Sequence record: MG748547
Length of the DNA: 64,000 bases
From: Escherichia phage EP75
Strand: one strand, 5' to 3'
Of this stretch, positions 7,828 through 25,558 are shown in pieces; the stretch's first letter is position 1, and every line of letters starts with the position of its first letter. Below the pieces are notes generated by a model, which was not told where the DNA came from, did not search any database, and worked only from the letters and a program-made list of their open reading frames with translations. The translations under genes were made by a program, and so were the position numbers.

Positions 7828-9063
7828 TCATCGTTTCAACAAAGACATGAGGTTTACACTGGTCGACTTCGGATTGTCCTCTATATTCCGGACGGGCATT
7901 TTCAGATTAGTGTAAACCTCAGATGGTTCCCAACGCGTACCCTGCTGCAGGTGCCATATATGTAGAGGAACACCCGTTTCAAAGAACACAGGCATCTTCC
8001 ACTTCTGGACGCCAGGAACGTGCCCTGCAGGAGCTTTTTCGCACAACAGGGTATCTGGTAGCCAGAGGGAACGGGCTTCCCATAATGCCTTACAGGAGTA
8101 CTCAGGCCAGATGCGTTCCATGTAGTCGATCTCATCCCAAGTACGCTCGGCATCCCACCCGATGTAACGGGTATTCTTCAGACGGAAGAATTTCTTAAGC
8201 CAACAAGCACCGGAGGTCTCAAAGTTCAGACGATTGATGAACGTGATGTGGCCGAACTCTTCAACGCATTCCTGAAACGCTTTCTCAAGGTCGTTTTCGA
8301 GTATATCACATTCTTCGTCTGTAATAGGACAACCGTTGATCTTTTTCTTCCCGTGCTTGGTCACCCAATCATCACGGTTGGATAAGAACGCCGCGCCGTT
8401 ACGATTGGATTCGCTACCATCACGGTCACGCAACATGAAACCAGGGACGTCTATATCCCATATGTTACCGAAGACCATGTTCAGGGCTTCCAGGAAGTTC
8501 CATGCGCTCAGGCGACCGAAGTATTTCCATGACATCGCCGTATTCCACAGTTCAGTGAACTGGTCTTCCTTGGTAGTGCATTCCAACATCCAACGAAAAG
8601 AATCCATTTGGGTTTTACCACCCAACCAATCGATATAGGACTGAACGCACGGAATCATCTTCGACTTACGATAACGACAATCTGTATCGAAGCGCATACG
8701 ATCAAAGTTCAGGTTATACCAATCAGAAAATCGCTGAAACTCTTTCGGAGATTGTGGGGGTACAGGAAATTCACTGTAAATTGTCCATGGTCCAATCCCA
8801 TTATAGCAACAACCCCACAAAAAGGCCATCCAAATCTTGCGCTCGATCTTCTCGAGCTGTGTGATGCCTTCTGTAACCTCTATGGCATAATCCATCAGAC
8901 GGACTTGCTGGTTATGCTCTTCAGTGTAGGATAGCGCCTCCACCCATGCCTTGAGCAGGTACATGCGATTTTCTGGCTTACGATAATCTACTGCCAGATC
9001 AATCGGGTATTTCCATTTTTCAGGGGCTTTATACCCCTGCGGCATTTTAGAAATGTGTATCAT
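7828..9063 (-). CDS. 411-aa enzyme of unknown fold; candidate DNA-base hypermodification enzyme (possibly thymine pyrophosphorylase-type aminotransferase)
   Basis: large Trp/Cys-rich ORF in the same tightly packed minus-strand operon as a P-loop kinase and HAD phosphatase; function is inference from context. Confidence 0.3.
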   Translation of the reverse strand: MIHISKMPQGYKAPEKWKYPIDLAVDYRKPENRMYLLKAWVEALSYTEEHNQQVRLMDYAIEVTEGITQLEKIERKIWMAFLWGCCYNGIGPWTIYSEFPVPPQSPKEFQRFSDWYNLNFDRMRFDTDCRYRKSKMIPCVQSYIDWLGGKTQMDSFRWMLECTTKEDQFTELWNTAMSWKYFGRLSAWNFLEALNMVFGNIWDIDVPGFMLRDRDGSESNRNGAAFLSNRDDWVTKHGKKKINGCPITDEECDILENDLEKAFQECVEEFGHITFINRLNFETSGACWLKKFFRLKNTRYIGWDAERTWDEIDYMERIWPEYSCKALWEARSLWLPDTLLCEKAPAGHVPGVQKWKMPVFFETGVPLHIWHLQQGTRWEPSEVYTNLKMPVRNIEDNPKSTSVNLMSLLKR

Positions 9064-21329: not shown

Positions 21330-21360
21330 ACAAAAAGAAACCCGATCATCCTGATCGGGC
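21330..21360 (-). terminator. terminator hairpin CCCGATCA-GG-TGATCGGG followed by TTTCTTTTT, closing the tRNA-region transcript
   Basis: read on minus strand. Confidence 0.5.
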
Positions 21361-21774
21361 TATGTTAAACCATCGTGGGGATGGAAAGACTACTCACAGC
21401 AATTTCTGATAATGGGCGTTGGGAGAGTGCGTCGGGAATCGAACCCGAAATCGTCAGGACGCTGAAAGCTATTTGCATTTCACTTGCATATCCTGCGACT
21501 TTCTTAACTTCCTTAACCCCAGATTGTTATGAAGTCGGCATGCACACCTTCTTCATCTTCAGGAAGTCACACTCATAATTTGATTTGCGATGATGAACCC
21601 ATTTCATCTGGGGTTGGGTGAGTGGGAGTTGAACCCACAACGCTTGGCTCGCTTTCCCTACCATTCAGGCCACCCAATTCCAGGAGGTAGAGCACCTTTG
21701 CCGTCGGTGCCCATATGCCAGTCTTCCGCCCTGGCCTCCACTCGCGTCTGGGATTTCCGCGATGATCGCAAATT

Positions 21775-21858
21775 TGGTGTGAGTGGATGGATTTGAACCA
21801 CCGCGCTGTTACGGGGAGATTTACAGTCTCCTGCATTCGACCGCTCTGCCACACTCAC
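21775..21858 (-). tRNA. tRNA-Tyr (anticodon GTA), class II with long variable arm, CCA encoded
   Basis: hand-folded cloverleaf: acceptor GTGAGTG/CACTCAC perfect, anticodon loop CTGTAAA, T-arm GGTGG-TTCAAAT-CCATC. Confidence 0.8.
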
Positions 21859-22253
21859 ATTTAGTCTACCGCCGCGTGCTGGGCCACGCTTGAGGACATC
21901 GGCCATCCTTCCTCAGCTAATCCACGCGGCGGTAGATTTGGATCAGAGTGTACGGTGTAGCATTCCGCAGGGGTGCACCTACTGTAGCCCTTCCACTCTG
22001 AAATTGGTGGGTGTTACTTCCGTCGGGTTCAGATTCCGTTCGGCTATTGGACTTCGCTTCAAGAGCTTGTCGTTCGCGTACTTCGTGCTTACTTGCTTTC
22101 GTTCACACCCATTGTTTGTCGTCGGGTGGGGGATTCAAACCCCAATCTTTAGTTTGCGTTTCTTCAAAGCTATCATATGTTCACTTTGAATAATAAACTC
22201 CCCTGGACATCATAACAGGATCTCTATTTCATCCTGCAAGACCCGACATAATA

Positions 22254-22329
22254 TGGCGACGATGACAGGACTTGAACCTGCGACATATGGATTAACAGTC
22301 CACCGTTCTACCGACTGAACTACATCGTC
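22254..22329 (-). tRNA. tRNA-Asn (anticodon GTT), CCA encoded
   Basis: hand-folded: acceptor GACGATG/CATCGTC perfect, D-arm GTTC-AGTCGGTA-GAAC, anticodon loop CTGTTAA, T-loop TTCAAGT. Confidence 0.85.
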
Positions 22330-22471
22330 AAATTTTGTGAAGACCAAACGCCGGATCGTAACGGTCGTATGTCTTCGGGTGGCTGTCGTTCTTGATGCTT
22401 ACCATGCGCAGATCATAAGACTGATTCTGCAGGACATACACCAACCACAGCTGTTTTATAAATTCCATCAT
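22328..22471 (-). CDS. small ORF (47 aa) between tRNA-Met and tRNA-Asn
   Basis: minus-strand ATG with GGTGAGG RBS; stop overlaps tRNA-Asn 5' end by 2 nt. Confidence 0.25.
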   Translation of the reverse strand: MMEFIKQLWLVYVLQNQSYDLRMVSIKNDSHPKTYDRYDPAFGLHKI

Positions 22472-22514
22472 AAAGATACCTCACCAAATTTTATTGAACA
22501 ACTGGTTTATTTAG

Positions 22515-22590
22515 TGGTGACCCTGGCTGGACTTGAACCAGCGACCAATCGATTATGAGTCGACTGCTCTAACCACTGAGCTACGGGGCC
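22515..22590 (-). tRNA. tRNA-Met/Ile2-type (anticodon CAT), CCA encoded
   Basis: hand-folded: D-arm GCTC-AGTGGTTA-GAGC, anticodon loop CTCATAA, T-arm GCTGG-TTCAAGT-CCAGC; one C-A mismatch in acceptor stem. Confidence 0.7.
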
Positions 22591-24784
22591 AAAATTGGCG
22601 GGGTCTGAGGCTTTTCACCTCACCTGCTGGATTGGCCTCCAGCTGTTCTCTCTGGGGACTCGCTGTCCGGACAGCTATCCCTTAAACTATCGCCCCATAT
22701 TCAATTGCACCAGAGCATAATTACCGCTATACGACCACCCTCTCGGGCAGGTTGGTTCTGACCCAACGTCTCTCTGATGCGTTTTATTGTGTGCCCAATC
22801 AAGGACTGTCAACCTTTTATCCCGTTTGTGCATGATCAGTTCATGCATGCCTCTTGTGCGCCTCACGGCAACGCGCTTCTGTAGGTCATCGACTTGCACT
22901 GTAGTCTCACCACAGGCGTTTATTTTTCCAGGGCTTTCCACTTACAAGTCTTAACCAGATCGGGATACGGGCTTGTAAGATCGGATTGGACACAACTTTG
23001 ATGGCTCTAGGACTAAAGATCCCGCGTCACCCATAGACTTGGTTTATAAAATCTAGAGCCATCAAAGTTGCAACCAATGTCGCAACTCGCACTTCAGCGT
23101 CTTCGTCTCGCTTCAGCACTTGTCCTCTACGTTCGGACCAAACGAGGCTGGCCGACAGAAACATAACACCACTCATCACTAGAGCGAGGATGTGGTTGAT
23201 AGCCACGATGTTACGTCTCTGTCGTAGAGTGATCACACTTGTCAGGATGATCACTGTTTTGCGAACTTGAAAATACTGCGCCTGTCTCGGGTTTCCCCTT
23301 AGTTCGGCCTCTCATTGTTCGTCTGGTCAGGGAGCTACCCTTGATGACCAGCTTATTTTGAGATCTTCGCCAGCACCCACTAGTGTCTAGAATATGTAGG
23401 TGTCGAGGTCTGCAAGGCATTGCCCTATTTCATACAACGCTCTCTCAAGTGCGCAAATCGAAGTTCTCTGGGCTTAACAGGTTCGACCCAACATGTTGTA
23501 TATCGCCTAACTTGCTCATGGGACGGACACATCTGTGTACAGACCTTGAGGGTTAAAAGATATACCCAGAGAACTTCGATTTGCGTAGCCCTTCACTTGC
23601 CAAAGATCAGGGCTAATAACAAGACTTCGCTCACATCTTTGAGGACACTGCGCGGGACTCGAACCCGCCATGAACATCTGGCGCCAAATGCTTCCACCTG
23701 TCAATGTCCTCAAAGATGTGGAGCCGTTTTAGGGAGTCGAACCCAAATGATTGGCCAGCGCTGACCTCACATCCCATCTGACTTAGGCAACCCACCTCTG
23801 CTACTCAGGAGCTTATCCCCTTTGGACAGTCAGATATAACGGCTTTGGGATTGGAGGAAGGACTCGAACCTTCTCATGTACGCTCCTGATTTCTCAGAAG
23901 TAGCCTGCTCCCATCGACCTATTAAGTACACGCTCCGCTCATTGTTCGGCGGGAGCTTATTAATCACACCCTCCCACCTATTGTTAGTGCGCCGAATTTT
24001 GTTATGAGGAATCGGAAGACCTCACTGACTTATAGGCTATTACGCCGCCATCAGAACTTCGGAATCATTAGCAGTTATTTGCTTGGTCAGTTTCTAAAAA
24101 CCCGCAAAGTCACGCACAACGAAAACGAAAACCTGTTTGAGTCCTAAACCTACCTGTCTTGGTCTCACATCGATATGAGTGGCCAGGACTCAAACAGCTT
24201 GCCGTTCAGTGAGTTAACTATACTTTGTAACCCGTTATTGATAAAACCTTTTATTTTGTTGGCGAGGGTGCGGAATCGAACCACACTTCTGAGCGCTACC
24301 CCGTGTCACCAATGCACCACCTCACCATCGATTTGCCGGAACTTACGCATCCGGCCTCGTCCTGTCGGTGTTCTTCTGAATCCGGGAAGATCAGCAGGAA
24401 CTATGAATCAAGTTAATTCAACCAACAGGAATCCTCTTGTTGCCCTTTGACGCAACATTATGAACCCTCTATGAAGACTCATAATGTTGTCGGCGTGATG
24501 GAGATTAGCGCCCCCGACCTCCCCTTATATGTTGGTGTCGACTTGCCAACAGGGTGCTCTCTGATTCTGAGCTAATCACGCTACAACAGGGAGTTTCGTT
24601 CTCCGACGGTCAAGTGCGTCCACTGACACCAGCGAGGTGGCTATTACGCCTCTATTCACACAAGCCCCTGAGACTAGGGGTTAACTGGTTTTGGGCTGCA
24701 AACCCGACTCCCACTGTGTTATTTCCCTCATGTTTAATACTTTACCGCAGCCCAGCTAATTTGAAAAGTCCTCTCCCCTTTGAG

Positions 24785-24988: not shown

Positions 24989-25558
24989 TTATTTTAACAC
25001 TTCTAACTTCACAACACGACGCAGAAGGTAAACATATTCGCCAGCAGCTTCATGCGTCATATAATGGGTAGAAGGTGTGGAATGATTGTTCTGGGTTTCT
25101 TTTAATCCAACACGTTCTGCCCAACCATTAATAGAGTTCCCATAGAAACCGATAATCGCGCCAAAATAAATGCGCTGGCTTTCTGGCTCTAAAACATAGT
25201 TGACAGTGAAGCAAATATCAGAACGAATAGACTCCAGTTTCATACCAACACGACCTTCGGAGAATTCGTTACGAACATATAAATGACGGAAACGATCGCG
25301 CCGCGCTTGTGATGATTCTTCCAATTCTTGTCGGAGTGAAGAAGTTACGTCAATATTAAATGAAAATGTTGGATTCTGTAAATCGGAACGGGCCAACTCT
25401 AACGCAGATTCAACAACGCGACGGAAATTGATACTTTTACCTGTCAGGCGTTTCACTTCATCTGTGATTGTTCCAAAAGGGATTTTCGTGGCGCGTTCCC
25501 CTTCGTATTTTGCCAATAAAGGAATAATGTGTTTCATGATTGCTGTGTTAATGTGCAT
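24989..25558 (-). CDS. hypothetical protein
   Basis: 189-aa ORF; upstream TTCAATAAA + TATAAT hairpin element. Confidence 0.5.
   Translation of the reverse strand: MHINTAIMKHIIPLLAKYEGERATKIPFGTITDEVKRLTGKSINFRRVVESALELARSDLQNPTFSFNIDVTSSLRQELEESSQARRDRFRHLYVRNEFSEGRVGMKLESIRSDICFTVNYVLEPESQRIYFGAIIGFYGNSINGWAERVGLKETQNNHSTPSTHYMTHEAAGEYVYLLRRVVKLEVLK

Follow-up and report, generated by a model that had tools for sequence, protein, structure and literature searches.

Long Inverted Repeats beside the tRNA Genes of Escherichia Phage EP75 Are Maintained as RNA Hairpins, Probable Stalks of Small Structured RNAs

Introduction

Small stable RNAs other than tRNAs are known from phage tRNA clusters. 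The cluster of phage T4 contains two, the "species 1" and "species 2" RNAs (rnaC/rnaD), which arise from the same precursors, and species 1 is a substrate of RNase III in vitro. E. coli RNase III cuts helices of about two turns largely regardless of sequence; stalks of this kind include the stems of E. coli 16S and 23S rRNA and the sites in T7 early mRNA. In the MALAT1–mascRNA and murine gammaherpesvirus 68 TMER genes, which are eukaryotic or belong to a eukaryotic virus, tRNA-like elements punctuate the transcript. Salmonella, a host of the phages considered here, encodes Rsr and YrlA. This study concerns five long inverted repeats, H1 to H5, that lie beside the tRNA genes in a 64,000-nucleotide stretch of Escherichia phage EP75 (MG748547; the whole of this stretch is called the window). 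They are evolutionarily maintained RNA hairpins on the strand that encodes the tRNAs, the minus strand.

Four of the five had been singled out in a first-pass annotation, which considered them not to be ordinary terminators and proposed RNase III processing sites for the tRNA precursor, stable small RNAs, or miniature mobile elements. The best-supported reading joins the first two of these: the repeats would be stable small RNAs, sites at which the tRNA precursor is processed, or both. In its fuller form, which is moderately likely, the inverted repeats are the paired stalks of discrete structured-RNA modules and act as processing or stability handles for small cargo RNAs, the stalks probably being RNase III substrates. 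The hairpins belong to no described family and make up a new modular set among the small structured RNAs found next to phage tRNA genes.

The likeness to RNase III stalks lies in the long flanking helices, in selection for pairing over sequence, and in polycistronic transcripts that contain tRNAs. The differences are that the cargo is 40–95 nt long, that several stalks with unrelated cargos stand in a row, that one of them (H4) keeps its sequence and may lack a cargo, and that cleavage is here a prediction. T4 species 1 and 2, compared by description only, resemble the present RNAs as stable non-tRNA RNAs among phage tRNA genes; in contrast, the Kuttervirus set is much larger, is modular, and is associated with an RNA like tmRNA (transfer-messenger RNA).

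Kutterviruses (ViI, CBA120, Det7, and relatives) have been widely studied and are used for biocontrol. The region described here is dense with selected RNA structure and follows a simple anatomical rule, stalk plus cargo. Its hairpins are physically tied to an unannotated tag-template RNA found in four unrelated phage backbones. If the RNAs are expressed, they would offer an entry to the ways in which virulent phages manipulate tRNA processing, ribosome rescue, and RNA-targeting host defences, and phage genomes could be made to express small RNAs by using the stalks as natural "sockets".

The Inverted Repeats and Their Folding

All four repeats of the first-pass annotation were recovered by a repeat search, with coordinates shifted by 1–8 nt (Table 1). 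H1, described there as a 13-nt repeat at 21866..21937, has perfect 14-nt arms that span 21865-21936, and the stem of H3, given as 20 nt, has perfect arms of 21 nt. H5 is a fifth repeat of the same kind. In an inverted-repeat scan of the whole window the five rank first, second, third, fourth, and eighth of 16, and over the other ~61 kb just two more inverted repeats have a spacer of at least 40 nt. By chance, 64 kb should contain about 0.04 perfect 14-mer inverted repeats within 160 nt, and about 2e-6 of 21 nt. Each arm is single-copy per strand in the window.

Folded as minus-strand RNA, H1 to H4 reach −38.2, −45.0, −60.3, and −51.7 kcal/mol, with z-scores between −4.2 and −7.6, and none of 200 shuffled sequences was as stable. 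Plus-strand folding is about equal for H1 and H3 and worse for H2 and H4. For H5 the values are −38.8 (minus) versus −30.8 kcal/mol (plus), and in H4, H5, and H2 the minus-strand RNA is the more stable by 3–9 kcal/mol. The view that these are not ordinary terminators holds: a terminator scan of the minus strand called none at any of the five hairpins, and the sequences 3′ of the stems (CUAAAUG, UGUCCAAUC, CACUUGAG, AGCGAAG) have no U runs.

Compensatory Changes on the tRNA Strand

The window belongs to a Kuttervirus (Ackermannviridae), matching Salmonella phage Se-J at 97.5% identity over this region and S118 at 96%. For comparison about 50 loci were assembled from Kuttervirus, Taipeivirus, Agtrevirus, Limestonevirus, and unclassified Aglimvirinae, together with contigs from IMG/VR and metagenomes. 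In the H1 stalk 96.7% of cells are paired and 8 of the 14 pairs have changed on both sides, a result matched by none of 500 shuffles; sliding the partner by 1–3 columns lowers pairing to 25–49%. The H3 stalk (19 unique homologues) is paired in 97.9%, with double changes at 9 of 20 pairs (0 of 1000 shuffles). RNAalifold analysis of nine H2 sequences gave 29 pairs, four of them doubly changed and none broken, and in the H4/H2 stalk family double changes occur at 8 of 18 pairs. Pairing in relatives has thus been kept through compensatory changes, and the repeats pass the comparison with related phages that the first-pass annotation had put forward as a check.

The strand that carries this structure can be judged from the non-Watson–Crick pairs. 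Read on the minus strand, G·U exceeds A·C by 18:6 in H1, 14:5 in H3, 23:5 in the H4/H2 family, and 10:0 in H5 (one non-homologous row dropped), or 65:16 in total over these related sequences; the direction of the excess is the same in every stalk counted. Because compensatory changes are combined with a G·U strand bias, the repeats are RNA structures rather than terminators or miniature mobile elements.

Stalks and Cargos

Each module consists of a stalk of 14–22 bp and an apical cargo of 40–95 nt. The region as a whole is a mosaic of discrete modules, 65–145 nt long, each independently present, absent, replaced, or reordered among genera, and loose searches uncovered further long-stalk hairpins with other cargos in relatives.

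H1 illustrates a fixed cargo on a free stalk. Within its core are an inner GAGGA/UCCUC hairpin and perhaps a GGCC/GGCC pseudoknot. The core varies hardly at all among the 245 phage records that contain it, and it is essentially never annotated as a feature. These records comprise Ackermannviridae of six host genera (Salmonella, Klebsiella, Escherichia, Dickeya, and others) and N4-like Gamaleyavirus coliphages. In the N4-like phages the core sits in an unrelated 21-bp stalk and its inner stem covaries (GAGGA/UCCUC to GUGGA/UCCAC). In Klebsiella phages the entire stalk has been exchanged (UCUGGAACCCGGUU/AACCGGGUUCCGGA versus UCUACCGCCGCGUG/CACGCGGCGGUAGA) around an identical 44 nt, and the order of H1 and the neighbouring module H1b is swapped. 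Scans of IMG/VR, metagenomes, and GTDB for the H1 core and a conserved 22-mer added little diversity; the sole GTDB match, inside an actinobacterial coding region, was dismissed as chance.

H4 shows the complementary pattern, a fixed stalk with a free cargo. Its arms, AUCUUUGAGGRCAUU/AGUGYCCUCAAAGAU, are kept across genera, and among relatives they enclose at least five different cargos, or none. The cargo is 53 nt long and contains a T-arm in the window, Se-J, and ST-W77; it measures 50 nt in Det7, 54 nt in May and EspM4VN, and 97–98 nt in ViI, CBA120, S118, MK-13, and 0507-KN2-1. In Madison, Zahir, PH4, and ZQ1 a mere 6-nt loop remains. H2 is related to H4 in part: in Klebsiella phages its distal stalk is replaced by H4-type sequence nearly the same as the H4 stalk.

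Taken together, these alignments indicate that the stalk is generic, since pairing alone appears to be selected in H1 and H3 and one stalk appears to serve many cargos in H4. The cargo, by the same comparisons, would be the specific, functional part, as judged from an H1 core that is nearly invariant across two phage families.

The empty H4 site also bears on the suggestion that the repeats are miniature inverted-repeat mobile elements inserted in the tRNA region. Such elements would have inverted termini and would be polymorphic for presence and absence, as these modules are. However, the empty H4 site keeps the whole stem around its 6-nt loop, which makes the arms part of the site rather than of an insert. 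Each arm is, moreover, single-copy in 64 kb; apart from the resemblance of H2 and H4, the arms of different hairpins are unrelated and drift by pairwise compensation; and no target-site duplications are visible in the alignments. Neither dispersed copies with such duplications in related genomes nor a transposase acting on these ends was found. This part of the first-pass annotation is not supported, and of the explanations considered here mobile elements are the least credible.

A different explanation places function in the DNA, with the repeats as cruciform or hairpin sites for recombination, homing-endonuclease targeting, replication, or packaging, and with the arms driving cassette exchange. 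The mosaicism of the region is striking, cargos are swapped exactly between conserved arms, mixed left- and right-arm alleles suggest recombination within modules, the H4 arm sequence is kept across genera, and genes for HNH homing endonucleases occur in the region in CBA120 (orf221), 0507-KN2-1 (orf90), Mutine, Se-G, and Phi_10. The 65:16 ratio nevertheless favours a single transcribed strand, and the interiors of the cargos (the inner stem of H1, the T-arm of H4) show conservation and covariation at the RNA level. Four unrelated phage backbones share these modules, which in every case have the orientation of the tRNA genes and lie behind promoters. Genome termini or terminal repeats at this position, an idea raised by "repeat_region" features and by the starts of records, were rejected, the features being hairpin arms and the starts arbitrary linearisations. 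Elements acting as DNA are therefore improbable.

Nor do the modules behave as peripheral domains of one very large ornate RNA of the GOLLD or ROOL kind. The conserved, structured, protein-free sequence beside the tRNA genes does extend over ~2.3 kb, with 73–80% identity between genera. Against a single molecule stand the reordering of H1 and H1b, the individual loss, gain, or replacement of modules, and the interruption of the sequence by CCA-ended tRNA-like units whose excision is expected; in Rfam, neither GOLLD nor ROOL nor any other large RNA gave a match. An ornate RNA is thus very improbable.

Table 1. Hairpins, RNAs, and flanking signals of the tRNA region in the window
Feature	Position	Strand	Arms in repeat search	Description
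H1	21865..21936	minus	21865-21878 / 21923-21936; 14 nt, 100% complementary, 44 nt between	14-bp perfect stalk; 44-nt conserved core GAUUAGCUGAGGAAGGAUGGCCGAUGUCCUCAAGCGUGGCCCAG
H2	22985..23078	minus	22985-23010 / 23053-23078; 26 nt, 88%; perfect 18-bp core 22993-23010 / 23053-23070	19 continuous pairs plus 4-bp outer helix; ~42-nt cargo including conserved UAUGGGUGAC
H3	23452..23585	minus	23452-23472 / 23565-23585; 21 nt, 100%, spacer 92 nt	21-bp perfect stalk; 92-nt cargo, predicted three-way junction; −60.3 kcal/mol, z −7.6
H4	23632..23720	minus	23632-23650 / 23702-23720; 19 nt, 95%; 16 perfect pairs plus minus-strand G·U	19–22 bp stalk; 53-nt tRNA-like cargo
H5	24124..24206	minus	24124-24145 / 24185-24206; 22 nt, 86%	fifth stalk hairpin; directly 5′ of tag-template RNA, just downstream of conserved sigma70-like promoter
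H1b	21943..22001	minus		hairpin module, 13-nt arms UCAGAGUG.../...CACUCUGA; z −2.1
M7	23719..23843	minus		125-nt tRNA-like RNA; acceptor GCCGUUA/AAACGGC, discriminator N, encoded CCA
M8	23846..23914	minus		69-nt tRNA-like RNA; acceptor AUGGGAG/CUCCAAU, G3·A70 mismatch, then C plus encoded CCA
tRNA-like element	24261..24330	minus		acceptor GGUGAGG/CCUCGCC, T-arm UGUGGUUCGAUUCCGCA, GCGC at anticodon position, no CCA
tmRNA-like mRNA-like domain	23986..24126	minus		resume codon GCU 24072-24070, tag codons 24072-24043, stops UAA UAG 24042-24037
tRNA-Tyr	21775-21858	minus		canonical, interleaved with modules; ARAGORN/Rfam
tRNA-Asn	22254-22329	minus		canonical, interleaved with modules; ARAGORN/Rfam
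tRNA-Met	22515-22590	minus		canonical, interleaved with modules; ARAGORN/Rfam
promoter-like site	24217-24244	minus		TTATCA-16-TATAGT, signal scan; TTGTCA...TATAGT at same place in relatives
intrinsic-terminator-like site, strong	21339-21361	minus		10-bp stem then UCUUUUU; closes RNA island

A Processing Model

In the model that we favour, the region would be transcribed as one or a few precursors, from promoter-like sites at ~24997 and 24244 to the terminator at 21361-21339. RNase P and 3′ trimming would free the canonical tRNAs and two CCA-ended tRNA-like RNAs, M8 and M7, all of which would thus punctuate the transcript. The long stalks would join the two ends of each cargo as double-stranded processing sites for RNase III, as in rRNA operons and T7. 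Alternatively, or in addition, the stalks may stay in place as protective end-helices, leaving the cargo as a stable small RNA.

Given the length preference of RNase III, perfect stems of 18–22 bp in an enterobacterial transcript are expected substrates. Uninterrupted helices of about two turns, formed from the flanks, are present in H2 (19 bp), H3 (21 bp), and H4 (19–22 bp), and the H5 helix, ~17–22 bp with its extensions, is of the same class. The processing-handle model accounts for stalks that drift under a pairing constraint, for conservation of the cargo, and for a stalk that persists without cargo. Because the cargos are a pseudoknot-like core and anticodon-less tRNA-like bodies beside a tmRNA-like tag template, the model further points to the host's tRNAs, ribosomes, or trans-translation machinery as what the products would act on.

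Several observations weigh against this model. The covariation and G·U/A·C counts were taken over related sequences and so are not counts of independent events, and some A·C mismatches are present, although these appear to represent recombinant arms (loci L029 and L018). At just 14 bp (18 with its inner GCUG/CAGC helix), the H1 stalk is shorter than would be expected of a classic RNase III site. The H4 stalk is conserved in sequence across genera beyond what pairing demands, a fact for which a generic stalk offers no explanation and which could reflect a partner that recognises the sequence itself, be it a protein or a site at the DNA level. No Rfam family matches any cargo. Finally, the RNase III step and co-transcription are themselves inferred.

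tRNA-Like Units

The H4 cargo was described in the first-pass annotation as enclosing a T-arm that does not complete a cloverleaf, and this proves correct: a perfect T-arm, GCGGGUUCGAGUCCCGC, is present, and neither ARAGORN nor Rfam calls a tRNA there. The cargo has a GCGC-capped hairpin at the position of the anticodon arm and no D-arm or CCA, and its topology is that of an ordinary tRNA with the long stalk in place of the acceptor. The same body plan recurs in M8 and M7, just upstream on the RNA. In M7 the D position is taken by a long arm and the anticodon position by a GCGC-capped hairpin, a T-arm is also present, and the H4 stalk shares its first 2 nt with the M7 CCA. The M7 acceptor covaries (GCCGCU/AGCGGC in MK-13), and M7 is the most conserved module of the region, with 91–98% identity even in Klebsiella phages. 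M8 has a GAAA-capped hairpin and a T-arm, and is an indel among close relatives, being absent from Se-J, Det7, and MK-13.

None of the three is a tRNA in the accepted sense, that is, a cloverleaf with a 7-nt anticodon loop, called by ARAGORN or scoring at least 29 bits against RF00005. In H4, M7, and M8 the anticodon position is occupied by the tetraloops GCGC, GCGC, and GAAA, respectively, and a D-arm is missing. Their best Rfam match is to tRNA-Sec, at 16.8–17.4 bits versus a threshold of 47, and the H4 cargo yields nothing beyond that and a weak match to mascRNA (17.7 bits). The element at 24261-24330 is reported by ARAGORN only at the 80% threshold and is absent from many relatives.

Comparison with punctuating tRNA-like elements is instructive. 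In mascRNA and TMER genes, as here, non-decoding tRNA-like units are followed by long stem-loops, and tRNA-processing enzymes set the ends of the neighbouring RNAs, a step that is predicted for the phage region. Unlike those RNAs, the phage hairpins carry cargos and are not miRNA precursors, and the H4 match to mascRNA is far below threshold. The Ro-binding YrlA RNA, which combines a long stem with a tRNA-like module, is similar to H4 in that a long terminal stem closes a T-arm module. In H4, however, the order is hairpin, T-arm, and 3′ strand, and the long stem is at the acceptor and not at the anticodon-stem position; a relationship to YrlA or Y RNA was rejected on this topology and for want of any Rfam Y-RNA match at E ≤ 5.

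Three of the bodies, at 24261-24330 (A-GCGC-U), in M7 (A-GCGC-U), and in H4 (G-GCGC-C), carry a GCGC palindrome exactly at the place of the anticodon loop. These palindromes might mediate loop–loop contacts or protein recognition.

N4-like Gamaleyavirus loci have tRNA-like RNAs of their own. At four of them (L035, L021, L055, L056) a 124-nt CCA-ended RNA is found, in which the acceptor covaries (UACUGGU/ACCAGUA versus UACCAGU/ACUGGUA) and a probable pseudoknot stands in place of the anticodon arm. L021 and L035 also encode mini tRNA-like RNAs of 66–67 nt that end in CCA. All adjoin the tag template described next.

A tmRNA-Like Tag Template

Between H5 and the tRNA-like units lies an apparently undescribed RNA that, to judge from its sequence, resembles the mRNA-like domain of tmRNA and is widely distributed. 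The E. coli tmRNA tag is ANDENYALAA. In the window the reading is AUAACU followed by GCU AAU GAU UCC GAA GUU CUG AUG GCG GCG UAA UAG, which encodes ANDSEVLMAA and two stops. The element also has a P5-like helix and a downstream H-type pseudoknot. BLAST searches found it, at 71–83% identity and unannotated, in unrelated phages: T1-like phages (C1, SG01, VLCpiS13d), N4-like phages (EC1-UPM, FSL SP-076, PhAPEC7), and lambdoid prophages.

Conservation of the reading frame is strong. Among 28 unique sequences from four phage groups there are six 10-codon variants with the frame kept, and two T1-like phages have two further 10-codon variants, read from the alignment. All 28 homologous tags have 10 codons, begin with AND or ANE, and end in L-x-[A/V/S]-A; the variants include ANDDVVLMAA, ANDNTFLAVA, ANDNAYLAVA, and ANEEAYLMVA, and within a given tag the differences are synonymous. 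The stop codons lie in the P5-like helix, which is 99% paired and shows an A-U to G-C switch. Stems 1 and 2 of the downstream pseudoknot are 100% paired, with three and two covarying pairs, respectively, and 0 of 1000 shuffles reach this pairing.

The likeness to tmRNA (ssrA) therefore includes a GCN resume codon, a 10-codon tag of the ANDxxxLxAA type, double stops in a helix, and a covarying pseudoknot, and anticodon-less T-arm/CCA units adjoin the element. In permuted tmRNA the tRNA-like domain is at the tip of a long helix, a layout equivalent to stalk and cargo; the T-arm there is on the 5′ side, whereas in H4 it is on the 3′ side of the cargo, as in ordinary tRNA. The element also differs from tmRNA in that its Rfam matches are below threshold, that no G3·U70 acceptor is joined to it, and that a T1-like template occurs without a tRNA-like domain. 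Matches to the tmRNA families (RF00023, RF04321, RF01849-51) were obtained at every locus, all below the gathering threshold: tmRNA_permuted gave 21.5–33.7 bits versus 47 and beta_tmRNA 17–21 versus 84. ARAGORN reported the element only at -ps80; at default settings it called no tmRNA at 24 loci. A search of the locus for the 5′ acceptor strand GGRGCYG of tmRNA did not find it, nor was a tmRNA tRNA-like domain (G3·U70 acceptor, T-arm, CCA) found joined to or paired with the tag template. The acceptors of M7 (G1-C72/C2-G71/C3-G70) and M8 (G3·A70) are not of the alanine type, G3·U70. Duplex prediction for the tag RNA with each of M7, M8, H4, and the 24261-24330 element gave no convincing pairing, the z-scores being −1.5 to +0.5 and the interior loops unrealistically large.

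In Ackermannviridae and T1-like phages a separate sigma70-like promoter serves the element, which in N4-like phages stands among tRNA genes. Among 5,426 complete E. coli genomes, 124 contain it. One prophage was inspected, a lambdoid prophage of E. coli 55989 (L052, 3300-4100); there a template for ANDDVVLMAA and a double stop lies between the antiterminator Q and holin genes, with a 16-bp stalk hairpin on either side (CACAAC-A-GGUAAGAGCA ... UGCUCUUAUC-GUUGUG), the two hairpins carrying different cargos. In T1-like C1 a stalk hairpin occupies the 3′ side of the template. H5 is the 5′-terminal hairpin of the tag RNA in the window, and in N4-like phages the hairpin at that position has a different stalk and carries the H1 core. 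With stalk hairpins flanking the tag in the window, the N4-like phages, the prophage, and C1, the stalk/cargo design travels with the tag RNA across phage families. In E. coli 55989, about 250 nt downstream of the tag, only the tRNA-like domain of the tmRNA model is matched (RF00023, 20.2 bits versus 47), by sequence ending in GCCACAAC-CCA.

It is conceivable that hairpins, tRNA-like units, and tag RNA form one trans-translation-like device, or decoys directed against tmRNA and SmpB, in which the stalks would be comparable to helix P2 and the cargos would match the tRNA-like domain or pseudoknot 1 of tmRNA. The N4-like H1 core is held in a hairpin directly 5′ of the tag template, the place of H5 in the window. 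The template itself is kept, with frame-preserving and synonymous changes and a covarying pseudoknot, and T-arm/CCA units come after it in Ackermannviridae, N4-like phages, and lambdoid prophages. There is also a precedent in mycobacteriophage DS6A, where tmRNA is reduced to its tRNA-like domain, a molecule reported to inhibit tmRNA (PMC4131195, PMC11915505). Yet no alanine-type G3·U70 acceptor is joined to the template, T1-like C1 has a template and no T-arm whatever, and H1 to H4 are missing or located elsewhere in many genomes that keep the template. A single device of this kind is unlikely. It is also rather unlikely that the stalks, the CCA-ended tRNA-like RNAs, and the tag RNA make up a hitherto unrecognised modular phage system that hijacks or imitates trans-translation, as a split tmRNA decoded in the absence of a conventional alanine tRNA-like domain or as a tmRNA–SmpB decoy. 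With the same reserve, the stalks would in such a system be interchangeable sockets for functional cargos, among them the H1 core, whose topology and GAGG/CCUC stem may recall tmRNA pseudoknot 1, and the system would be shared by Ackermannviridae, N4-like and T1-like phages, and lambdoid prophages. Stalks as processing or stability handles remain the preferred reading.

Tag template and H5 (23986-24212) occur as alleles of ~75–79% versus 96–99% identity among phages that are otherwise 95–97% identical; the Se-J tag element, for instance, is just 78.9% identical to that of the window. Alleles that differ so sharply indicate probable recombinational exchange of single RNA modules.

Within the literature library that was searched, there was no earlier mention of these tags, of tmRNA-like RNA in such phages, or of non-coding RNA in Ackermannviridae. 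In tmRNA surveys of 2014 and 2025, phage tmRNAs come from mycobacteriophages and Bacillus phage G only (PMC4131195, PMC11915505).

The RNA Island

The modules occupy a protein-gene-free RNA island at ~24250-21340 on the minus strand, within an open reading frame (ORF)-poor stretch of ~3.6 kb that extends from a conserved 189-aa gene (24989-25558, minus) to small genes downstream of 21300. All flanking genes and all three canonical tRNAs are on the minus strand. GenBank records leave the region blank, fill it with short hypothetical ORFs, or mark one hairpin arm as "repeat_region", the sole annotation of an H3 arm in MT074472. A search of IMG/VR by the flanking proteins returned close relatives only.

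Rfam searches of the window and its sub-windows, at gathering and permissive thresholds, placed only the Tyr, Asn, and Met tRNAs past threshold. "Matches" of the hairpins to miRNA precursors were dismissed, as they reflect merely long stems. ARAGORN, run with introns and lowered thresholds, produced mostly noise; its two useful calls were the tag peptide and, weakly, the tRNA-like element at 24261-24330.

Other parts of the island are conserved as well. A strongly conserved ORF-free block lies between H2 and H3 (23100-23450, minus), with segments such as GGCCGAACUAAGGGGAAACCCGAGACAGG identical across genera; 1-nt indels identify the block as non-coding. At 22133-22150 and 21617-21680 (minus) there are orphan T-arm-like sequences (GGGGUUUGAAUCCCC; GUGGGUUCAACUCCCAC) without a complete tRNA, and near the counterpart of the latter a tRNA-Ser and a "pseudo tRNA" are annotated in relatives. 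The orphans look like remnants of replaced tRNA cassettes. The HNH genes mentioned above are inserted at various points of the island in other phages, the window having none, and may be drivers of module shuffling.

A small hairpin, UAGCCCU...AGGGCUA (23592-23622, minus), separates H4 from H3. It is kept in Klebsiella phages, with changes in the loop region, and its position in S118, MK-13, and Det7 is taken by ~150 nt of other sequence. Elsewhere in the window, a perfect 13-bp inverted repeat with a 48-nt spacer (7848-7921) lies inside the 3′ part of a 411-aa ORF (7828-9063, minus).

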